Source: an uncultured Verrucomicrobiae bacterium (lineage in GTDB: Bacteria > Verrucomicrobiota > Verrucomicrobiia > Limisphaerales > JAFGQR01). From it: 64,000 nucleotides of DNA. The notes beneath the pieces are model-generated. The model had not been told where the DNA came from and made no database searches. It saw only the letters and a program-made list of their open reading frames with translations. Every line of letters begins with the position of its first letter. The stretch's first letter is position 1. The translations under genes were made by a program, and so were the position numbers. The stretch spans positions 64,001 to 128,000 of the forward strand of contig CAWBHS010000078.1 in NCBI GenBank assembly GCA_963788655.1, given 5' to 3'. Below, piece by piece: positions 10,496 to 20,648 of the stretch.

Positions 10496-12028
10496 ATGAA
10501 AACGAATTACCAACTTCGAAACCAAACGCTCGCCGTTGATCCATTACCCGATGATGCTTTTGACATGGGGAGCACGCCCGCCTCGGGCGCTGCCAACCGG
10601 CGCCCTCGCCGGTTGGCTCAGGAACGTCCAGGCCCGCCATACGGTGAAGGTTTTTATCATACCAAAGACTGGTTGGCGAGGCGCCAACCAGTGCGCCCGG
10701 GGCGGGCGCGCTCCCCAGTTGCACCGGGGCAAATTGAACTTTTTACCACTTCCCGGCGCGCCTTTCTCAAGCGGTCCTTGTTGGCTGCGGGGGCAACGCT
10801 CGCGGTGCCGGCTTTGGTGCCGTCATCCGTTCTCAGCGCAAACGCACCCAGCAACCGGGTGAACCTCGGCCACATTGGCGTGGGCGGGCAGGGGAGTGCC
10901 TTGCTGGGCGGCTTTCTCGGCTTGCCGCAGGGACAAAGTATCGCCATCTGTGATCCGATCAAAGACCGCCGCGAAGGAGCGGCCCGGCGGGTCGAGCAGG
11001 CTTACGCCAAGCAGCGTGACCGCGGCGATTTTTCAGGCTGCCAAACGTACAATGATTTTCGTGACCTGCTGGCGCGCGACGACATCGACGCGGTGGTGGT
11101 GGCCACGCCGGATCATTGGCACGTGCCGATTGCGTTGGCGGCGGTGCGCGCCGGCAAGGATGTTTATGTCGAAAAACCGCTTGGCCTCACCATGGAACAG
11201 GACCAGGCGTTGCGGGAAGCGGTTCACCGTTACGGTGCGATTTTCCAATACGGCACCCAGCAACGCTCGTTCAGCCGGCATTGCGGGTTTGCCTGTGAGT
11301 TGGTTCGCAACGGATACCTTGGCGATCTGAAGGCTATTCATGTCGTGGCCCCCAACGGCGTGACCGGCGGGAAAGCCGTTCCGCAACCCGTGCCCGCGGG
11401 ACTGGATTACGACCTTTGGCTGGGGCCCGCTCCGGTAACGCCTTACACCCATGACCGCGTGTTGGGCGTTGGCCGCTGGCACATTTACGATTACGCACTG
11501 GGCTTCATCGCGGGCTGGGGCGCGCACCCATTGGATATTGCGCATTGGGGCTATCCGCACATTCCTGTGGAATACGAAGGGACGGGGCTTATTCCCACAG
11601 AGGGATTGTTCGACACAATTGTGAATTGGGACGTGCGTGGCCGATACGCCAGTGGCATTGAGTTCACGCTGAAACACGGAGGCGACATGACCACCTTTGT
11701 CGGCACCGAAGGCTGGATCGCCGCTTCGCGCGGTGGCATCTCGGCGCAACCGGAGTCATTGCTGAAAGTGAAGATCAAGCCCGGCGAATTGCATCTCTTG
11801 CAGGACACGCACCATTACCACGATTTCCTGACCGGCGTGCTGACCCGCAAACCGCCCGTCAGCAACATCGATTCCGCCGTCCAATCCGACTTCATGAGTC
11901 ATCTCGGCGACATCTGCATTCGCACCGGGCGGACCATCCGCTGGGATCCGGAAAAGGAAACTATCATGGGCGATGACGCCGCCGCGCGCATGATGCGTCG
12001 TGCGATGCGGGCCCCATGGAGAATTTAA
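10496..12028 (+). CDS. Gfo/Idh/MocA oxidoreductase with Tat signal and N-terminal palindrome insertion
   Basis: TSRRAFLK Tat motif, IGVGGQG, ATPDHWH, VYVEKP, GTQQRS, WGAHPLD. Confidence 0.9.
   Translation: MKTNYQLRNQTLAVDPLPDDAFDMGSTPASGAANRRPRRLAQERPGPPYGEGFYHTKDWLARRQPVRPGRARSPVAPGQIELFTTSRRAFLKRSLLAAGATLAVPALVPSSVLSANAPSNRVNLGHIGVGGQGSALLGGFLGLPQGQSIAICDPIKDRREGAARRVEQAYAKQRDRGDFSGCQTYNDFRDLLARDDIDAVVVATPDHWHVPIALAAVRAGKDVYVEKPLGLTMEQDQALREAVHRYGAIFQYGTQQRSFSRHCGFACELVRNGYLGDLKAIHVVAPNGVTGGKAVPQPVPAGLDYDLWLGPAPVTPYTHDRVLGVGRWHIYDYALGFIAGWGAHPLDIAHWGYPHIPVEYEGTGLIPTEGLFDTIVNWDVRGRYASGIEFTLKHGGDMTTFVGTEGWIAASRGGISAQPESLLKVKIKPGELHLLQDTHHYHDFLTGVLTRKPPVSNIDSAVQSDFMSHLGDICIRTGRTIRWDPEKETIMGDDAAARMMRRAMRAPWRI
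10567..10716. repeat. REPIN-like palindromic element inside a coding region (family B, copy 1)
   Basis: ggggagcacgcccgcctcgggcgc...gcgcccggggcgggcgcgctcccc with internal ccaaccggcg/cgccggttgg and tggttggcgaggcgccaacca hairpins; second copy at 34710-34857. Confidence 0.85.
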
Positions 12029-12101
12029 AGCGGACCTTTCTTTTTTCAGTACTTGCATTGCGGTCCTGGCTTGTGGCAATTTCCCCGCCGGTTTCGTTGA
12101 T

Positions 12102-12177
<76 letters not shown>

Positions 12178-12302
12178 GCTTTTCAACCCTCACTGCCTAA
12201 AGGACTCACGGGATTTTTTTCTGTTCCTTAATTGGTTGTTTTTAGCTCCCCAAGAATCTGTTTATCCCCTTTCGGTCTCTTCTTTCAGGTTTTCAACCGT
12301 GG

Positions 12303-12659
12303 TTACGCCCCTTTGGCTTTGGCTTCTTCGGCCTTGGCCGCGTCGCTGGCGTTTCCAACCTTGGCGGCGAGCTGATCCAAATCTCGATTGATTGCCCCCA
12401 ACTGGCCTTGCATGGTCGCGACGAGTTCAACCTTTTGCGCACAGGCACAGTGCTGCATTGCTTGCGCGGCCTCTTTGGCTTCCTGTGTGACCTCGTCGAA
12501 CTGCGGCACCGTGGCTTCTCCGGTTTTGGTCGCCGAAAATTGCGCCGCCGGTTTACCGCCCACCGCGAAGGCGGTGACGGCTCGGCCTGACTCCGTTCCA
12601 ACTGCCAGCAAGATGCCGGCAGCACGTTCCCCTGTCCTGCCGGGCAATTGGGTGGTCAC
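12303..12659 (-). pseudogene. degenerate helical (coiled-coil) protein remnant
   Basis: Ala/Lys/Glu-rich helical stretch (EAKEAAQAM...AQKVELVATMQGQLGAINRDLDQLAAKV) with no credible start. Confidence 0.35.
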
Positions 12660-12667
12660 TTCCTATA

Positions 12668-12753
12668 GCGCTCAGAAAAATGGAGTCGGGTCTGGTGAGA
12701 TAAGTGGAGCCACCGGCTGAGCGGCAGCGAGCCGAGTTCTTCTTTCCAAGGAG
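12668..12753 (+). repeat. left terminal inverted repeat
   Basis: gcgctcagaaaaatggagtcgggtctggtgagataagtggagccaccggctgagcggcagcgagccgagttcttctttccaaggag. Confidence 0.92.
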
Positions 12754-12963
12754 GCGATCGGGGCTTGGCTGCCCGGTTCCGGTGCTCCAACAAAAATCCC
12801 CGTCCCACCTTCTCGACACACCCGTGCCGATCCGGTAGGACGAGGACATTCATAATAGCGTTAGCATCCTAAGCGAGAGTTTCGCTTTTTTGCAATAACG
12901 ATCGCGGAGCATTTTGAGTTTACTCCAGACTGGTATCGCGGGGCGAAAATCCGGCGGCTGATC

Positions 12964-13485
12964 TTGGATTACTACCAAGTCCTGCGATCGATATTGCGAA
13001 GGCAGCCTCATCGGCGACGGTGCCTGACCCGCTGTCGGCACTGCCGCATCTTTTTTCTCACCGATCCGCGCAATACCGGGCGCAAGGATATGCCCCGAGG
13101 CAAGCGCAAGGACTTGGCCTGTCCCTTGGGTTGCCGTGAAGCCCACCGGAAGCACCAGTCCACATCACGCAGTGTTGCCTACTACCGGACAAAAGAAGGG
13201 CGAAGAAAGAAACGGGACCTGAACCAACGCCGCCCGGCGGCTTGCCGCCGCCCAGCGCCCGCGCCGCCGCCCAACGCCCCGAACGCACCGGCCCAGGCCG
13301 CCCGCGCACCGTGGCCGGAGCCGGTGGTGGAGCATGTCCGGAGGGTCGTCAGCTGGATCGAACACCGGCACATCCGCCGAGCGGAGATCCTGCAGGTGCT
13401 GGCGAAAGTTTTGAGACAACAGGGCATAGGCCGGCGACGCCGGATCGATCACACTGTGGCCTGGCTCAATGAACATCCGCCTTAA
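12964..13485 (+). CDS. basic Cys-rich hypothetical protein (putative Zn-binding); the frame is open further upstream to ~12865
   Basis: CLTRCRHC...CPLGCREAH, Arg-rich; ends 11 nt before the parB-like ATG. Confidence 0.7.
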   Translation: MDYYQVLRSILRRQPHRRRCLTRCRHCRIFFLTDPRNTGRKDMPRGKRKDLACPLGCREAHRKHQSTSRSVAYYRTKEGRRKKRDLNQRRPAACRRPAPAPPPNAPNAPAQAARAPWPEPVVEHVRRVVSWIEHRHIRRAEILQVLAKVLRQQGIGRRRRIDHTVAWLNEHPP

Positions 13486-13496
13486 AGACATCCGGT

Positions 13497-14576
13497 ATGG
13501 CGCACGAGGTTGAACTGTCCGACTTGGACCTGCGGTACGAGGACTATCGCCTCAAACAGGCGGCGGTTGAAGCTCGGCTATTGACCTCGATTGCCCAACG
13601 CGGCATCGAGGAACCCCTGGAAGGCGTCGAGGTCGACCAAACCCAGGTTCTGCTCAATGGATTCAAGCGGTATCGCTGTGCCCGCAAGCTGCGCCTGAAC
13701 ACCGTGCCGTATACCTCCCTCGGCGCCGACGAGGTGAGCGGCATTCTGGGTTTGTTGCGCACGGCCAAGAACAAAAGCCTGAACATTCTGGAGCAAGCCC
13801 GCTTCATCGACGAACTCAAAAACGTGCGTCACCTGAGTGTGGCGGAGATCGCCACGGAACTCTCGGTCAGCAAAGCCTGGGTCAGTATGCGCCTGGGATT
13901 ACTGGGAGAGATGAGCCCCAAGGTACGTCAGCAGCTCTTCAGCGGTGCGTTTCCGGTTTATCCCTACATGTACCTTCTGCGTCAGTTCATGCGTATGAAC
14001 GGTGTCAAGAAGCAGGAGATCGAGCAGTTCGTCCTGGCCGTCAGCGGCAAAGATCTGAGCGTACGGGACATTACGCAATTAGCTCACGGCTGCTTTCGGG
14101 GACCCGCGTCCTTCCGCGAAGAGATTCTCAAGGGCAACGTGGCCCTGCCGTTGCGACAGATGAACCAGGTTCCTCTCGATCCGGAAGGATGCAACGAGTT
14201 CGAGCGGGTTTTGCTGAGCGACCTGGAAGTTCTCCAGAAGTACATGCAGCGCGTCATGGGCAAGAGCCAGGACCAACGCCTCCAGAGCCGGGTGTTCCAT
14301 TCCCAGTCGCATCTTTTAACCGGAGGGATTTTGAGCCGCGGCACGGCCTTCCTCCAAACCTTGAGACAACTCCATGATCGAAACGGACAAGCGCAAGGCG
14401 GTTTACCTACTCCACCAGGAAGGCATGAGCCAGCGGGAGATCGCCCGCCGGCTGGGCCTGGGCCGCAACACGGTGCGACGGATCATCCAGCAGCAGGGCC
14501 AGGTGGTGCACGCCATCCGCAAGGACAAGCAAACGATCGACCCGGATCTGCTCCGGCGCCTGCACCTGGAGTGTGA
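13497..14576 (+). CDS. ParB/Srx-like N-terminal domain + HTH protein
   Basis: SIAQRGIEEPL, LLNGFKRYRCARKL (variant of the ParB GxRR motif), HTH LSVAEIATELSVSKAWVSMRL. The last ~200 nt overlap istA. Confidence 0.8.
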   Translation: MAHEVELSDLDLRYEDYRLKQAAVEARLLTSIAQRGIEEPLEGVEVDQTQVLLNGFKRYRCARKLRLNTVPYTSLGADEVSGILGLLRTAKNKSLNILEQARFIDELKNVRHLSVAEIATELSVSKAWVSMRLGLLGEMSPKVRQQLFSGAFPVYPYMYLLRQFMRMNGVKKQEIEQFVLAVSGKDLSVRDITQLAHGCFRGPASFREEILKGNVALPLRQMNQVPLDPEGCNEFERVLLSDLEVLQKYMQRVMGKSQDQRLQSRVFHSQSHLLTGGILSRGTAFLQTLRQLHDRNGQAQGGLPTPPGRHEPAGDRPPAGPGPQHGATDHPAAGPGGARHPQGQANDRPGSAPAPAPGV

Positions 14577-15895
14577 GGGCCGCGTTCAACGCATGCACGA
14601 GAAGCTGGTGGAGGAGGAAGGGCTCGCCGTGAAGTATTCCACGCTGACCCGCCGGGTGCGGGAGTTGGGCTTGGGCGAACCGCCCCAGGTCCGTTGCCAT
14701 CGCGTGCCCGATGAACCGGGCTTGGAGATGCAGCATGACACCAGCGTTTATCGCGTCGAGCTGGGCGCGCAACGCGTCAAGCTCGTCGCCAGTCTGATCT
14801 ACCTGCGCTACTCCAAACGACGCTACTTGAAGTTCTACCGCCACTTCGACCGCTTCCACATGAAGTGCTTCTTGCATGAAGCCTTGATGTGGTGGGGCTA
14901 CGCGGCTCGCCAGTGCATCATCGACAACACCAACCTGGCGCGACTGCGAGGCACCGGCCGCAACGCGGTCATGGTCCCGGAGATGGCGGTCTTCGGTAAG
15001 CAGTACCGGCTTCGAGTTCTGCTGCCACGAGCTCGGGCACAGTAATCGAAAGGCGGGGGAAGAGCGCAGCTTTTGGACGGTGGAAACCAACTTCCTGCCT
15101 GGCCGCAGCTTTGCGAGCTTGGAGGACCTCAACCAGCAGGCCTTCGCCTGGTCGACCGAGCGCATGGAGCACCGCCCCCAAACCAAGGCGGCCATCATTC
15201 CCGCCAAAGCCTTCGAGCATGAACGCACCTTTCTGCTCCCGCTGGCGCCCCATTTGCCACCGCCCTACAAGGTCCTGCAACGGGGAACCGATGAATACGG
15301 CTACCTCAGCTTCGACGCCAATTACTATTGGGTGCCGGGCACCGATCGCGCTGACGTCACGGTGCTGCGCTACGCCGATCGGTTGAAAATCTACAAGCAA
15401 CGGGAATGTCTGGCCGAATATGGGTTGCCGCCCGACGGGGTCCGCAATGAGCGGTTTAGCCCGGAGGGACTGCCGCCGCCCCCCCACCATCCCAAGAACC
15501 GCCGCCAGCCCACCCAGGAGGAGGAAAAGCGCCTGCGGGCTATCGGAGCACCGGTCAGCGCCTACCTGGATTGGGTCCTCCCCCGCAAAGGTCCGGGGCG
15601 CCATCGTTTTTTAAGAAGCCTGCTGGCGTTGAGCCGGAAAATGTCTCCGGAGTTATTCCGGCAAAGCGTCGAGCGCGCGGCCCAATTCCGGATCGAGGAG
15701 ATCTCCACCCTCGAGCGCATCGCCTTCTTGTATCTGCAGCAAGGGACGGGCGTGCTGCCGGTGCCCCAAGTCGATGAGCAGTTCACGGAGCGCGAGGCCT
15801 ACTTGGAAGGCTCGCTGACCGAAGCCCCTGATTTATCCATTTATCAAGATCCTCCCCAAGACGATCCACCCCCACCACGCTCTGGACATGAATGA
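14374..15895 (+). CDS. istA: IS21-family DDE transposase IstA, +1 frameshift at ~15007
   Basis: N-terminal HTH (MSQREIARRLGLGRNTVRRII), QHD, IIDN. Removing one C at tacc(ggc) restores YGFEFCCHELGHSNRKAGEERSFWTVETNF and joins ORF 15080..15895. Confidence 0.88.
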
Positions 15896-16655
15896 CGAAC
15901 TGACGCAACCACTAAAATATCTGCGCTTGAAAGGGCTGCTGGCCCACTGGGATGAGTATCTCCAGTTGGCGGCCCAAAAGAACTTCTCCCACGATCACCT
16001 CCTCCGGCACGTGGTGCAGGAAGAATACCGGACCAAGCGGGAGAACGCCCGCCAGTTCCGCCTCCGCAAGGCCGCCATCCCCGAACCGCTGGTCATCGAA
16101 ACCTACCCCTTCGCCCGGCAGCCCAAACTGAACAAGAAGAAACTGATGGCGCTGTATGACTCCCTGAACTTCATGCGGAACCACCAGAACATCCTCTGGC
16201 TGGGCCGCACCGGGTGCGGCAAGACCGGATTGGCCACCAGCTTTTTGATCCACGCCATCAATCACGGCTACAACGGACGCTTCGTCTCCTTCGCTGAACT
16301 CATCACCGAGCTGTTCCAATCGGTCGCCGACCACTCCGAACGCAAAGTCATGCGCAAATACCTGGCGTGGGATCCCTTGTTGGTCGACGAGATCGGCTAC
16401 ATTCCCATCGAACCCGTCCAAGCGGGGCTCTTTTTCGATCTGATGCAGCGGCGGCACAAGAAAAAGACCACTCTCATCACCTCCAATCTGGGCTTCAGCG
16501 ACTGGGGTTCCTTTCTCAAAAACGACCACCTCACCGCCGCGCTCATCGACCGCCTGACCGAAACCAGCCATGTCTTCAACATGAGGCAATGCAACGGCAT
16601 CCGTGACCGCCTCAGTTCGGACGATGAACTTCCCGCCGATCCGCCACAGGGCTGA
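15888..16655 (+). CDS. istB: IS21-family helper AAA+ ATPase IstB
   Basis: LKYLRL, GRTGCGKTGLA, LLVDEIGY, ITSNLGFSDWG, AALIDRL; overlaps the istA stop. Confidence 0.93.
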   Translation: MNDELTQPLKYLRLKGLLAHWDEYLQLAAQKNFSHDHLLRHVVQEEYRTKRENARQFRLRKAAIPEPLVIETYPFARQPKLNKKKLMALYDSLNFMRNHQNILWLGRTGCGKTGLATSFLIHAINHGYNGRFVSFAELITELFQSVADHSERKVMRKYLAWDPLLVDEIGYIPIEPVQAGLFFDLMQRRHKKKTTLITSNLGFSDWGSFLKNDHLTAALIDRLTETSHVFNMRQCNGIRDRLSSDDELPADPPQG

Positions 16656-17493
16656 CCCACTGCGGGCCATCCCGTTGACCGCGGTGCTGCGGGCCTGGGG
16701 TGCTCAACCCGATGCCTCGGACCAGCGCAAGTGGCACACGCCTCAGGGTGTCCTTTCGGTCAATGGCGCCAAATTCATCAACTGGAGCCGCGGCGGGGGC
16801 GGCGGCGGCGCCATCGATCTGGTCATCCATTTGAACCGTTGCGGCTTCCGGCAAGCCCTGGACTGGCTGGCCGGCCATTTCCCCTCACCCCCAGCTCAGA
16901 CCGACCTGGGCTTGGCCCAACCCCAGTTCCAACTGCCCGTCCCGGATCCCGCCCAACTCGCCCGCGTCCGCCACTATTTGCTCCAGCAGCGCCGGCTGCT
17001 ACCCGACCTCATTGACCCGCTCATTCAAGCCGGTTCCCTTTACGCCGATCACCGAGCCAATGCCGTCTTCCTACTGCAGGGAGCTAACGACACTCCGGTC
17101 GGCGCCGAACTCCGGGGAACGACGGCCCAGTCCTGGCGGGGCATGGCTCCCGGATCCAAAAAGGATTGGGGCTTCTTCTCTATCCCTCGGGTCCCGTTTC
17201 CTCCCCAAGCCAATACGGGGCCAGGCGGCATCCTGCTGTGTGAATCGGCCATCGACGCCCTCAGCGGCCGCATCCTTCATCCGCAACTGGCGTGCGTCTC
17301 GACCGCGGGTGCTCGGCCCAATCCCCGCTGGCTTGGCCCGCTCCTGGCACAAAGTCGCACCGTCTATTGCGGCTTCGACACCGACACGACCGGTCAGACC
17401 ATGGCCCAGGCCATGATCGCCCTGCATCCGGCGGTCCAGCGCTTGGCGCCGTCGGACCACGATTGGAACGACGTTCTCGGTTTGCAGCCGTAG
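16624..17493 (+). CDS. DUF3991/TOPRIM (primase-like) domain protein
   Basis: GGGAIDLVIHL, ANAVF, GAELRG, TOPRIM motifs LCESAIDALS, GFDTD and DWNDVL; overlaps the istB end. Confidence 0.82.
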   Translation: MNFPPIRHRADPLRAIPLTAVLRAWGAQPDASDQRKWHTPQGVLSVNGAKFINWSRGGGGGGAIDLVIHLNRCGFRQALDWLAGHFPSPPAQTDLGLAQPQFQLPVPDPAQLARVRHYLLQQRRLLPDLIDPLIQAGSLYADHRANAVFLLQGANDTPVGAELRGTTAQSWRGMAPGSKKDWGFFSIPRVPFPPQANTGPGGILLCESAIDALSGRILHPQLACVSTAGARPNPRWLGPLLAQSRTVYCGFDTDTTGQTMAQAMIALHPAVQRLAPSDHDWNDVLGLQP

Positions 17494-17558
17494 CCCTCGC
17501 CGCTTCCGCTTCCTCCTTCGCTCCACTACTCGGAAACTGTTCTACTCGGAAAGCATGG

Positions 17559-17644
17559 CTCCTTGGAAAGAAGAACTCGGCTCGCTGCCGCTCAGCCGGT
17601 GGCTCCACTTATCTCACCAGACCCGGCTCCATTTTGCTAAGCGC
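17559..17644 (-). repeat. right terminal inverted repeat
   Basis: Reverse complement of 12668-12753 with 3 mismatches. Confidence 0.92.
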
Positions 17645-17674
17645 CGTCGAACCCCGCCGGATGAGCATGATGCC

Positions 17675-17770
17675 GCCGAACAAGATCACTGGACCGAACG
17701 CGGGCCGGCCACGGCGGTTGGCAATTCGGATGTCACTGGCCGCCCGCGTCGGTCAGTTCTGACGTTCACC
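17675..17770 (+). other. integron attC recombination site
   Basis: R'' GCCGAAC, L'' CACTGGAC, imperfect palindrome (cgaacgcgggccggcca / tggccgcccgcgtcg), L' GTCAGT, R' GTTCACC. Confidence 0.75.
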
Positions 17771-17772
17771 AG

Positions 17773-18133
17773 TCAAGCGTTGGTGCGGGTGTCGGTGATG
17801 AGGCCGCAGATGACGGCGGCGACGGTAATCATGAGTTCGCAGTCGTTGTAGTGGTCGTCGCGGGCGATCTGTTTCCAGATGTATTTGAAGCGGCCACGGG
17901 GGGCGGTGACTTCTTCGCGGCGGACGGCGGAGAGTTGTTGGAGGTAGTCGCGGGTGACGGCCTGGGGGATGGTCCATTCGCCGACGAGGCCGGTGGTAAA
18001 GTTGGCCATCAGGTCGCGCGTGGCGGGGTTGGCCCAGTTGCACGAATCCCAGGGCATCGCCAGGGGGTTGGCGCGGCAGCGTCTTGGCGTGCGGTAGTCC
18101 TCTGCCGCTATCGAAAGACAGGGGCGCGTGCAA
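17773..18133 (-). pseudogene. fragment resembling the C-terminal nuclease region of a lambda-GpA-type phage terminase large subunit
   Basis: EWTIP..VTRDYLQQLSA.RR...WKQIARDDHYNDCE pattern; a FDSG motif lies upstream in another frame. Confidence 0.5.
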
Positions 18134-18197
18134 ATGCGGCAGAGGACACAGCAGCTAAACGCAACTTTCTGAACCGGTGCTCCGCCGCCGCTGCTTG

Positions 18198-18335
18198 GTG
18201 TTGCACAGAATTATTGTCTGCTGTATCGCCGAGTGGCGCTCGGCAGGACATGCATGGTTACGGCAGTACTAGGAACTGCCAACGCCCGGCGGACGGCAAG
18301 GCCGCGATACAGCCGATTGAAAATCTGCGCTACAC
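18198..18335. repeat. REPIN-like inverted pair (family E)
   Basis: gtgttgcacagaattattgtctgctgtatcgc (18198-18229) versus gcgatacagccgattgaaaatctgcgctacac (18304-18335). Confidence 0.65.
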
Positions 18336-18482
18336 TTGGCGGCGGTCCCCATTGGCCCGTTCAACGGCGAAGATGCGTGTAAGGCACAGGGCGGGCCGGA
18401 CGCTCTCCAATCGCTGGCCTGACTGACAACCTACGGTGCCGGAACAGGCGCTGTTTGCCTACCGTCACCGTGGGAAGTTGCC

Positions 18483-20648
18483 TTATCTCACTTCGTGACG
18501 GATTTGGAACTGCCCGCTATCTCTTCGGACCAAATGGCTGATCTTCGCATCGACAGCGACGCCCGCCACCATCGTCTTCATACCGGCAGGATTCGCCACC
18601 AGGATCTGCTCGCCATGCGCCGTCTTGATGCGTACGGCCGCGACACCAATTTGCTTACCCGACGAGGTGTTCGGCAGTTCCACCGGTTCGGCGGTCAATC
18701 CCAGCGGTTCGTCTGGCGATGCCAAGGAAACGTTCCACAAATAGGTCGTTTCGTTGGTTTTGCGGCGGGCAATGACCAACGGGACGCGGTCTTCGGTGTG
18801 ATGCCCAACGCCGGTACCAATAAGGAAGGTGGTCGGCTGCCCGGACGCCATCGCCCAGCGCACTGACGGGCCGTCACGGTTCCCGAAAACGAGTTGAAGT
18901 CCACGCTCCGTACCGAGGGATTTCACATCTCGCAAATACGAGTATCCGGGCTTCTTCGGCAGTTCGAATGCCTGGGCGCCTTCTGGCGATTGCGCCAGCT
19001 TTCCCAAGTTATGATACGCGAGATCAAAGGTGTGTTCCTTGTCGGCGGTAATCTGATCCAGGAAGACCAACAGTTTGTCGTTTATCAGCGCCACCGTGCG
19101 CGTGAATCGGACTCCAGGATAAATCTTCCCCGCGTCAGCCATCACGGCGCTGAAGCCGTCCGCGGCAAGGAACGCTTCGCACTTGCCCGCGGCAGCTTTT
19201 TGCGAGGATTCGTCCATCGTGAGCGTGTTGTGGGCAATCGTGGTGCGATACCAACCACGCTGAATGGGCACCCCATAATTGGCCGTGCCCGGATCGGGCG
19301 CCAGAATTTGCCCGCGCCCATACAACACAAACCCCAGTTTGTCCGGGTGACCGTGACCGCCGCCGTGGGGACCGTAATCGAGACAAAACCATGTCGCCTG
19401 CTTGCCGTCACCCGCCGCCAAAATGGCATAACCCGAAGCCGGAAAATTGCGACTGAACGGTACAAAACTGGGGGCCGGTCCCTGGATGGGAACGCCGTGC
19501 AACAAGGCCGCATCGGTCTGGCGACTGCCGCGGTCGAGCACCAACCGGTAACGCTCGTCGTGATACCGTGCATAGGCCGTTTCATAAAGACCGGCACTGC
19601 GGGTCAGCGAAACTTCATGCGAGTCATTGAACGCCGGCAATTCCAAGTCCGGCATGGCCATGGCCAACGGCGCGTCAAACATGCCTTTGAATTCCGGGCC
19701 GTACAAATTGATGCCGCAATGGAAGGCGCCTTCGGTCAGATGCGTCACCGCCGACACGGTGTAGAAGTGGTAGCCCCAGGCGCCTTCGTACCACGCGCCG
19801 TCGGGTGTGATCCCTTTGGCCATCTGGTTCAAGTAACCGGAGGGACCGTTCAGCGCTTCGTCCACGAGTTTCATGTCGCCGATGAGCAACCCTGTCAATC
19901 CGACGGCGGAATTCTTCCAGCATTGGATATTGTGAATGCCCAGCTTGTGGCGGCGAATGACGTCCGTGGCGGGATAAAGCAATCCTTCCTTCACTTGTTG
20001 TTGCTCCGCGGCCGATAGCGTGTCCCAAAAACAATCCGCTCCCTCGACCACGTCAATCAACCAGGTGGACTCGTCGAGGGTTTGCGGTCCAACTTTGCCG
20101 CCGCCGGTCTTGGCCTCGCCCTTGGTGTTGTGCAACGGGTAGCTTTGGTATTGGGCCGCATAAGCCAGCAGGATTTCCCGGCCCTTGGCGGCGTAGCGCG
20201 CGTCGTGGGTCAGTTGATAAACAATTCCCAGCACTCGAATGGCCTCGGACAGGCGGTCGTGTTGGACACTGATGACCACGTCGTCATACGGGTAGCCGGT
20301 GAACACTTCGCCGTCCACTGGACACACATGGCGAGTGGGGCTTTCAGTGCGCAGGCGTGCGCCATGTTTCGGGCACGAGTAGTAGTGATACCATTGCCCG
20401 CCGCGATCCGGCAGAGTTACTTCGCGTTTGCGCCAGCCGTCCGCCTTGGCTTTGAGCGAGGCGAACCGGGCTTTGGCCCACGGCTGAGCCGCGATGCGTT
20501 CCTGGATGGCCGGAAGATCTTTGGCGGTGAATAACAGCCGTGGATGCGGCGGCAACTCGGCCGGGAGTTGGACGGCCCCGGACAACATCATCGGCGTCAA
20601 GATGGCGGCAAGCGTGCCCAATCCATTCAACATTGAAAAACTGATCAT
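18483..20648 (-). CDS. heparinase II/III-family / alginate-lyase-domain polysaccharide lyase (PL17-like)
   Basis: QTLDESTW, HNIQCW, DGAWYEGAWGYHFY, PAFNDS, DYGPHGGGHGHPDKL, TIAHNT; N-terminal signal-like segment. Confidence 0.85.
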   Translation of the reverse strand: MISFSMLNGLGTLAAILTPMMLSGAVQLPAELPPHPRLLFTAKDLPAIQERIAAQPWAKARFASLKAKADGWRKREVTLPDRGGQWYHYYSCPKHGARLRTESPTRHVCPVDGEVFTGYPYDDVVISVQHDRLSEAIRVLGIVYQLTHDARYAAKGREILLAYAAQYQSYPLHNTKGEAKTGGGKVGPQTLDESTWLIDVVEGADCFWDTLSAAEQQQVKEGLLYPATDVIRRHKLGIHNIQCWKNSAVGLTGLLIGDMKLVDEALNGPSGYLNQMAKGITPDGAWYEGAWGYHFYTVSAVTHLTEGAFHCGINLYGPEFKGMFDAPLAMAMPDLELPAFNDSHEVSLTRSAGLYETAYARYHDERYRLVLDRGSRQTDAALLHGVPIQGPAPSFVPFSRNFPASGYAILAAGDGKQATWFCLDYGPHGGGHGHPDKLGFVLYGRGQILAPDPGTANYGVPIQRGWYRTTIAHNTLTMDESSQKAAAGKCEAFLAADGFSAVMADAGKIYPGVRFTRTVALINDKLLVFLDQITADKEHTFDLAYHNLGKLAQSPEGAQAFELPKKPGYSYLRDVKSLGTERGLQLVFGNRDGPSVRWAMASGQPTTFLIGTGVGHHTEDRVPLVIARRKTNETTYLWNVSLASPDEPLGLTAEPVELPNTSSGKQIGVAAVRIKTAHGEQILVANPAGMKTMVAGVAVDAKISHLVRRDSGQFQIRHEVR

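Follow-up and report, generated by a model that had tools for sequence, protein, structure and literature searches.

A 64,000-nucleotide stretch from the genome of an uncultured Verrucomicrobiae bacterium (“the window”, at its full length) carries an IS21-like element in which five co-oriented genes, packed or overlapping on the + strand, are enclosed by an 86-nt inverted repeat. In order, these are a Cys-rich open reading frame (ORF), a ParB-like gene, istA, istB, and a DUF3991-Toprim gene (Table 1). From sequence comparison, we consider it very probable that this element is one copy of a widespread five-gene transposon lineage lying deep inside the IS21 family. The lineage that we propose, with equally high confidence, spans 4.7–5.3 kb, ends in inverted repeats of 40–90 nt with two sub-repeats each, is flanked by 6–9-bp duplications, and keeps a fixed five-gene order. 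The whole five-gene unit transposes as one piece, apparently with short target duplications, and its genes are inherited together.

Apparently, this lineage is undescribed so far: an IS21-derived element with a conserved three-gene accessory module. No published description of a five-gene IS21-type element was found in the literature, the catalogues ISfinder and TnCentral lying outside that search. PMC12839542 was considered as an earlier description and dropped, as its word match was to “iSTAND” and not to IstA.

Ends and recurrence of the unit

An initial annotation of the window had reported 86-bp inverted repeats, matching at 83 of 86 positions, around a five-gene co-oriented array, and our repeat and ORF search bore this out. 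The second-longest inverted repeat in positions 11,000–19,500 measures 31 nt at 71%. Each arm holds two 16-nt sub-repeats, 24 nt apart, in a layout that matches the L1/L2 and R1/R2 repeats carried by IS21 ends, as described in PMC10122671. The 16-nt pattern has six matches in the 64-kb window, four of them at the element ends, against 0.53 expected, and none of 100 shuffles reached six.

The true tips of the window copy probably lie at about 12,664 and 17,649, 4–5 nt beyond the repeat, a placement taken from relatives in which target-site duplications (TSDs) fix the tips. The left tip motif, CTATAGCGCTCA, is common to five related loci (L017, L038, L062, L070, and L078), and ...GCGCCGTCG, at the right tip, is similar to the right tips that TSDs define in L039, L041, and L057. 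Tips defined in this way read CTATAG...CTATAG (L017), CGTTAG...GCGACG (L041), and CTATAGG...GCGGTCG (L057–L059), i.e., CT...AG or CG...CG. The tips of IS21 are 5′-TG...CA-3′, a signature that the initial annotation had noted as missing here and that the relatives lack as well. To score TSDs, we took the 16 related insertions with enough flanking sequence and allowed a non-alignable tip of up to 8 nt. Direct repeats of 6–9 nt were found at both tips of 10 of the 16, compared with 4 of 240 mismatched flank pairs. The duplications made by IS21 measure 4–8 bp; none was found at the two tips of the window copy.

The window copy is single within its genome. A DNA search and tblastn of the same assembly (8.96 Mb, 115 contigs) recovered sequence related to it, at 64–68% DNA identity, on three contigs: C60, where it lies at the end, and C65 and C66, which begin with it. 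The paralogous element has the same gene order, with 50–65% amino acid identity to the window copy in tblastn. C60 carries the Cys-rich ORF, the ParB-like gene, and the start of istA, and C65 and C66 each carry the end of the ParB-like gene, istA, istB, and the Toprim gene. The overlaps of C60 with C65 and with C66 are 99% identical. Near C60:404189 lies an 89-nt repeat that occurs inverted at C65:3645–3733 and C66:3392–3480, and C65 and C66 are 99.5% alike to 6 bp past this repeat, after which they diverge. Therefore, the genome contains a second element with five genes, about 4.9 kb long, that has two or more right-end junctions. An 8-bp flank, CCAACAAC, is common to the left flank on C60 and the right flank on C65. 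The paralogous element is multi-copy and looks recently active, although its C65 copy, one of the two assembled, contains frame breaks too.

Beyond this genome, a large protein collection yielded at least 4,967 Toprim relatives at E ≤ 1e-5 among 8,000 candidates scored; the 120 listed are 59–94% identical, and many of them come from roughly 5-kb contigs. When one genome per species was scanned, 416 stretches encoding a Toprim relative were obtained, and the best 80 were taken as loci L015–L094. All six protein pieces of the window element were matched in order at 48 of the 55 loci with room for upstream genes. The remaining seven are interrupted (L037), truncated (L077 and L087), preceded by a different upstream ORF (L079), or divergent (L043, L071, and L088). 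Even the divergent loci, in which IstA and IstB are about 30% identical to those of the window, have a ParB-like gene and a small CxxC...C ORF before istA and the Toprim gene after istB. When upstream flanks were compared with downstream flanks by BLAST, inverted repeats were found at 29 of 52 loci, 18 of them measuring 40–87 nt, and the units that they delimit span 4.7–5.3 kb. One Acidobacteriaceae genome has four 4,954-bp copies at 99.9% identity with different flanks. The long contigs that carry the element are labeled Verrucomicrobiales, Pedosphaerales, Limisphaerales, Acidobacteriaceae, Planctomycetota, and Desulfobacterales.

Altogether, the five-gene order and the long repeats recur both in this genome, at the second element, and in many others, which supports the suggestion of the initial annotation that this is a distinct mobile element, unlike ordinary cargo. 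The possibility that the five genes are juxtaposed by chance, or form a fragment of an integrative and conjugative element or plasmid caught between two repeats, draws on the fact that conjugative elements often carry ParB-like and DUF3991-Toprim genes; it is refuted by the recurrence of the unit, along with its repeats and TSDs, in many genomes and at sites that are unrelated (unless those loci are assembly artifacts), and the flanks of the window copy are ordinary chromosomal genes.

Individual loci showed further features. At L037, about 3.4 kb is inserted inside istA (L037:1610–4992). The truncated copy at L087:6492–9500, on a 2.5-Mb Desulfobacterales contig, has a Toprim frame open for 1,002 codons, possibly a fusion or a read-through. 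A 749-bp left-end fragment at L056:1768–2516 abuts the left end of a full copy, one of the four in the Acidobacteriaceae genome, and the contig ends before further view; possibly, one copy inserted into another. At the three divergent loci, the Toprim protein is 46–54% identical to that of the window, whereas IstA, IstB, and the ParB-like protein are 21–35% identical, which hints that lineages have exchanged the primase module or that this module changes much more slowly. Lastly, C66:1–3486 of the window's own genome (G000) is 91–92% identical in DNA to L039, on a 160-kb contig of a Verrucomicrobiales metagenome-assembled genome (MAG), and to L041, in a MAG labeled Planctomycetales, which points to recent spread or to mis-binning of a short contig.

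Place within the IS21 family

The assignment of the element to IS21 follows from both transposition proteins. The window IstB matches IstB_IS21 at 1e-50, and the accessory DUF3991 and Toprim_2 domains match at 9.6e-14 and 8.7e-8, respectively (Pfam/NCBIfam). The IstAs of intact relatives cover positions 3–294 of the 294-position IS21 transposase profile NF033546 (E 1e-32 to 1e-39). The only solved relative in the PDB is IS5376: its IstA is matched at E 2e-12, in an alignment that pairs the D, D, and E positions, and its IstB at 3.6e-32. The C-terminal part of the window IstA also matches Mu-transpos_C_2 (3.9e-4). For Pfam rve, no match was found at E ≤ 1e-3. As in IS21 and IS5376, then, a DDE transposase is followed directly downstream by an AAA+ helper.

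At the same time, the element stands apart from the canonical members of the family. IS21 is defined as a two-ORF element in PMC10122671, whereas here, five genes occupy about 4,986 bp. Canonical elements measure about 2–2.6 kb; they have an IstA of about 400 residues, compared with about 500 in the five-gene elements, whose inverted repeats reach 89 nt. Both proteins score below the NCBI curated cut-offs: three of three intact relatives' IstAs reach 113–137 bits against a cut-off of 160, and against NF038214 (cut-off 200), the window IstB scores 190.7 bits and those of two relatives score 182–197.

IstBs above the cut-off were found in 12 of 150 genomes of the same phylum (13 of 151 with the window's own). 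These 12 canonical IstBs are 22–33% identical to the window IstB, and none (0 of 12) has a Toprim match downstream, within the up to about 1.5 kb of downstream sequence searched. In a quick maximum-likelihood tree of 48 IstBs, with the five-gene rows selected through their Toprim gene, 30 five-gene elements, including the three divergent ones, fall on one side of a branch of length 1.0 with an SH-aLRT support of 99, and the 12 canonical IstBs fall apart from them. The separation from ordinary IS21, a point raised at the outset by the initial annotation, is therefore well supported. Two metagenome rows lie inside the five-gene side; one is decayed (with an internal deletion in IstA and no Toprim gene), and the other is cut by tyrosine-recombinase genes. 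Given the selection of rows through the Toprim gene, the tree shows one deep lineage, and not that this lineage always keeps its accessory genes. A metagenome scan seeded by IstB, using a degenerate P-loop pattern, gave eight loci among the matches listed, two of them five-gene and the others decayed, interrupted, or canonical. Among the loci found, mostly through the Toprim gene, there is no intact close relative without the accessory genes.

The accessory genes also diverge along with istB. Over 30 elements, pairwise IstB distances correlate with those of the Toprim, ParB-like, and Cys-rich proteins (Pearson r of 0.85, 0.90, and 0.79, respectively; Mantel p 0.001), values that are inflated by near-identical copies, the Spearman coefficients being 0.26–0.76. 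This inflation is one of several points that limit our reading. Because the loci were seeded by the Toprim protein, the figure of 48 of 55 cannot show that the IstA and IstB of this clade never occur alone, and one clade member, L130, has no Toprim gene, though it looks decayed. Among 40 relatives of the window's genome (1 of the same genus and 39 of the same order), none has a Toprim homologue. By a crude frame test, IstA is uninterrupted in only 38 of 48 arrays, eight having a stop within the span of the two IstA matches and two a frameshift. Six of the 16 insertions, including the window copy, have no TSD. Finally, the taxon labels of 5-kb MAG contigs are unreliable.

Accessory proteins and candidate mechanisms

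The two recognizable accessory proteins had been called ParB-like and primase-like in the initial annotation, and both assignments hold at the fold level, from Foldseek and profile comparisons. A structural model of the Toprim protein, built from 43 sequences, has a predicted local distance difference test (pLDDT) score of 90.4. All 35 listed Foldseek matches at E ≤ 1e-3 are primases of the DnaG, T7 gp4, Twinkle, or T4 gp61 type, and Toprim nucleases appear only at E > 0.02. Specifically, the Aquifex primase (2au3) is matched at E 3e-8 over 358 columns that comprise the zinc-binding and polymerase domains, the core of Escherichia coli DnaG is matched as well, and T7 gp4 (1nui) aligns with a root-mean-square deviation of 3.7 over 174 columns. 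The N-terminus has the fold of a zinc-binding domain (1d0q, E 0.019, 88 columns). Residues E207, D211, D252, D254, and D280, which we take to be equivalent to the acidic residues of DnaG, are invariant or nearly so in the 43 sequences. A PDB sequence search with the Toprim profile gave no match at E ≤ 1, the primases being found by the fold search only.

For the ParB-like protein, sequence matches to HTH_ParB and KorB (4e-4 to 6e-4) are below the Pfam cut-offs. Its model, from 33 sequences, has a pLDDT of 85.8 and gives 37 Foldseek matches at E ≤ 1e-3, the top ones being ParB-CTP, Noc, and KorB (E 5e-8 to 2e-6, 200–235 columns), and its profile matches Bacillus subtilis Spo0J (6sdk) at E 4e-17 over residues 7–197. 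Fold and profile thus agree on a ParB/Srx N-terminal domain and a helix-turn-helix (HTH), the likeness that the protein shares with ParB, Noc, and KorB. It differs from them in an extra C-terminal helical part (residues about 230–299, modeled with lower confidence) and in having no partner: no ParA-like ORF was found within the inverted repeats. PHROGs gives the element's proteins only “ParB-like partition protein” and “transposase”.

In an alignment of 30 sequences, the Cys-rich protein has four invariant cysteines, C24, C27, C53, and C57, paired as CxxC and CPFGC, and its C-terminal part is conserved as well. No family for it was found in Pfam, NCBIfam, PHROGs, or PADLOC. Of 1.84 billion cluster representatives, 881 match it at E ≤ 1e-3, including 223 at E ≤ 1e-30. 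A protein atlas gave 30 clusters of hypothetical proteins for it, none with a common Pfam family.

By analogy with IS21 and IS5376, IstA would bind the sub-repeats, synapse the ends, and perform cleavage and strand transfer, and IstB would capture and bend the target. IS21 is among the families presumed to transpose by copy-out-paste-in (bioRxiv 10.1101/2023.06.07.543989). Such a route needs replication across the element. We propose that transposition would require DNA synthesis across the element, as a copy-out or replicative step, and that the element's own primase would supply the RNA primers for that synthesis without the host primosome. Carrying its own primase, the element would be independent of the host primosome, and its occurrence across many phyla would fit with this. 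Together with the zinc-ribbon protein, the ParB-like protein would bind element DNA, as a KorB-like repressor or as an organizer of the transposition complex; a partition function is not proposed for it because no ParA is present. We advance this mechanism, i.e., copying with an own primase under ParB-like and zinc-ribbon control, tentatively and at somewhat below even chances; the best explanation as a whole, identity plus mechanism, we regard as evenly poised. More speculative still, though possible, is the general picture of cross-phylum DDE transposons that are partly independent of host replication through a DnaG-type primase of their own, a CTP-switch-like ParB, and a new zinc-ribbon protein.

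Three features of the proteins count against the proposed mechanism. In the Toprim N-terminus, no cysteine is conserved (only His38 is kept), so that the zinc ligands are lost, and there is no helicase-binding domain, the protein ending about 10 residues after the last Toprim strand. Because both are lost, the primase-like protein, as modeled, may not prime as DnaG does. In the ParB-like family, the GERRxRA motif aligns to GFKRxRCA, with its Glu replaced; G55 and R58 do not vary, and F56, K57, and R60 are kept in at least 90% of sequences. The ENLQR box is lost. Given the loss of the GERR Glu and of the ENLQR box, nucleotide hydrolysis by this protein seems doubtful.

The initial annotation had favored a free circular form, replicated with the help of the primase and retained or targeted by the ParB-like clamp, i.e., a miniature transposable plasmid. 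We consider this unlikely, even though the closest annotated primase relatives are on small plasmids, the ParB-like fold resembles CTP-dependent clamps, and many relatives are on contigs of about 5 kb. IS21 is likewise listed among families with circular or abutted-end intermediates in bioRxiv 10.1101/2023.06.07.543989. On the other hand, the element has no gene for ParA, a Rep initiator, or a helicase, the catalytic Glu of the GERR motif is replaced, and the contigs that have flanks show chromosomal insertions with TSDs. The short contigs themselves are not circularly permuted: in 28 of 32 contigs of 4.6–6.1 kb, the Toprim gene lies at 3.7–4.7 kb, in one fixed register, which is expected of repeat-bounded pieces and not of randomly opened circles. 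No circle junction was seen in the public sequencing runs, which were compared as assembled contigs that could not reveal one. Nor was any relative found in a viral contig collection, where the Toprim alignment gave 30 pattern matches with no relative among them.

A role in horizontal spread, in which the element travels as single-stranded DNA on conjugative or mobilized DNA and the primase and ParB/KorB-like regulator aid establishment, appears improbable. It is suggested by plasmid relatives of the Toprim protein, which number 137 records, all below 60% identity. The best of these are the C-terminal parts of MobV relaxases (33–35% identity over 96% of the protein), e.g., a 611-residue protein of the 2.9-kb Paracoccus plasmid pAES1. 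They share the DUF3991-Toprim module in a known relaxase-primase arrangement, whereas the element's protein is free-standing, has 289 residues, and belongs to a transposon without a relaxase. Papers found to name DUF3991 appear to concern DNA transfer, and the long contigs are labeled as members of Verrucomicrobiota, Acidobacteriota, Planctomycetota, and Desulfobacterales. However, a relaxase, an oriT-like feature, and a coupling protein are all missing from the element, and the insertions examined are chromosomal. In addition, a primase gene on incoming single-stranded DNA could not be expressed before the complementary strand is made, unless the protein itself is transferred.

No better placed is the notion that the three extra genes are host-directed cargo (defense, anti-defense, or addiction) with no part in transposition. 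Toprim and ParB-like domains occur in some defense systems, and the Cys-rich protein has no assigned family or characterized relatives. Yet cargo normally varies between relatives, and here, the three genes are fixed and overlapping down to about 30% IstA/IstB identity and diverge together with IstB. PADLOC gave no meaningful match (the best being 3e-7 over 44 residues), and the fold matches of the Toprim protein are primases, nucleases appearing only beyond the threshold given above.

Among known systems, Mu and Tn7-like elements (MuA/MuB and TnsB/TnsC) likewise combine a DDE transposase with an AAA+ target-capture ATPase, have ends with multiple transposase sites and a Mu-transposase-C-like domain in the transposase, and encode extra DNA-binding regulators beside the transposition genes. 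Mu transposes replicatively. It borrows the host primosome, whereas the element encodes a primase-like protein, has no phage genes, and has no relative among viral contigs; in contrast to Tn7-like elements, it has no TnsA, TnsD, or TniQ. Self-synthesizing transposons, i.e., casposons and Polintons, share the concept of a transposon that brings along some of the machinery for its own replication. Those have a family B DNA polymerase with Cas1 or a retroviral-type integrase, whereas the five-gene element has a DnaG-type primase and no polymerase.

If our reading is correct, no insertion-sequence-type element with a dedicated primase has been described before, as far as the literature searched shows. 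IS21 is a current structural model for the control of a DDE transposase by an AAA+ ATPase. Should the primase act in transposition, the role of DNA synthesis in IS21-type transposition would become directly testable in a self-contained 5-kb system, and the element would be a bacterial counterpart to self-synthesizing transposons. A compact and apparently phylum-crossing element is also a possible insertion tool less dependent on the host. In practical terms, assemblies are broken into contigs of about 5 kb by these elements, and their genes are now annotated separately, as transposase, “ParB N-terminal domain”, and “DUF3991 and TOPRIM” proteins.

The window copy and its surroundings

Table 1. 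Positions of the element and its parts in the window
Feature	Position	Strand	Remarks
Whole element	12664..17649		About 4,986 bp; probable tips, 4–5 nt outside the alignable inverted repeat
Left terminal inverted repeat	12668..12753	+	86 nt, 97% complementary (83/86) to 17559–17644
Two 16-nt direct sub-repeats, left end	12670–12685, 12694–12709	+	Presumed IstA binding sites, L1/L2 type
Cys-rich ORF	12964..13485	+	173 residues; CxxC...CPFGC putative zinc ribbon, variable linker, conserved C-terminal helical part
ParB/Noc/KorB-like ORF	13497..14576	+	Conserved part to about 14396; remainder is read-through overlapping istA
IstA, N-terminal part	14374..15045	+	HTH and first two catalytic Asp; ends by frameshift; from the NF033546 profile and alignment with intact relatives
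Extra base	15006..15006	+	+1 shift of the istA frame
IstA, C-terminal part	15080..15895	+	Catalytic Glu region, Mu-transposase-C-like barrel, C-terminal extension
IstB AAA+ helper ATPase	15888..16655	+	IstB_IS21 1e-50
DnaG-type primase-like protein	16624..17493	+	Zinc-less N-terminus like a zinc-binding domain, DUF3991, Toprim; ORF itself from 16603
Two 16-nt sub-repeats, right end	17603–17618, 17627–17642	−	R1/R2 type
Right terminal inverted repeat	17559..17644	−	86 nt, pairs with the left arm

The order, strand, and packing of the operon described in the initial annotation were confirmed, but IstA as a single ORF was not, as its gene is split by the extra base at position 15,006. The two resulting ORFs match NF033546 at profile positions 3–221 and 238–293, respectively, in different frames, and the frame is thereby broken between the second catalytic Asp and the Glu. 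Three-frame translation against intact relatives places the break directly after “...GKQY” and before “GFEF...”, as one extra base. This base is omitted in the contigs of all three public sequencing runs that cover the site (X1, X3, and X9, but not X2, whose contigs do not reach it). In near-identical copies elsewhere, istA is thus intact, and the frameshift is private to the window copy or to its assembly. A programmed frameshift was considered and dropped, as relatives are in one frame at this point and near-identical contigs have no extra base. The comparison with public runs was made on assembled contigs, the best run sharing at most 0.44 of the sampled window words, and joints listed in these contigs at 90 likeness had short sides and were taken as differences of relatives. 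With a broken istA and no target duplication, the window copy has probably lost its activity, provided that the extra base did not arise in assembly. Its inverted-repeat arms mismatch at bases 6, 9, and 19, two of which fall inside the outer sub-repeat.

The end of istA overlaps the start of istB (15,888) by 8 nt, and the start of the Toprim protein was set at 16,624, within an ORF that opens at 16,603, from alignment with relatives. The last 60 or so residues of the 359-residue ParB-like ORF (14,397–14,576) are read-through into istA in another frame, most relatives ending at about 299 residues (“...GQA”). Similar extensions past the usual stop occur in a few relatives (L032, L046, L049, L051, and L057). 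No sigma-70-like promoter site was found in positions 12,500–17,800, and one terminator-like site lies there, inside istB, fewer than in shuffled sequences. In the Cys-rich ORF, an in-frame 24-nt tandem duplication (13,080–13,119) adds eight residues relative to all 29 aligned relatives; it is common to near-identical copies elsewhere, as a contig of run X2 shows no gap over 12,899–13,134.

On both sides, the element is flanked by ordinary chromosomal genes, encoding a HEAT/F5-F8 protein, a GFO_IDH_MocA oxidoreductase, a heparinase II/III-like lyase, and a GH16 protein. A tRNA-Phe (GAA) gene lies at 12,102–12,177, about 490 nt upstream of the left tip, and a 78-nt match to this region, at 95% identity, is present in a genome of the same genus. 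Integration at the tRNA gene was considered and dropped, given this distance and the unrelated sites that relatives occupy. In that same-genus genome (G001), no empty site or synteny was found, the left flank matching as scattered pieces that include the tRNA and the right flank having no match.

Immediately to the left of the element, about 37 nt (about 12,591–12,629) form a dispersed repeat that has over 90 matches on the contigs of this genome. The copies are often arranged in regular arrays, for instance with a spacing of 121 nt on C4 (six copies) and of 229 nt on C65 (five copies). To the right, the 830 nt from 17,650 to 18,482 gave no Pfam match, and pieces of this region are repeated in the genome, at 92–94% identity on C58 and C62 and at about 80% on many contigs. 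The element may sit in repeat-rich or decayed mobile DNA.

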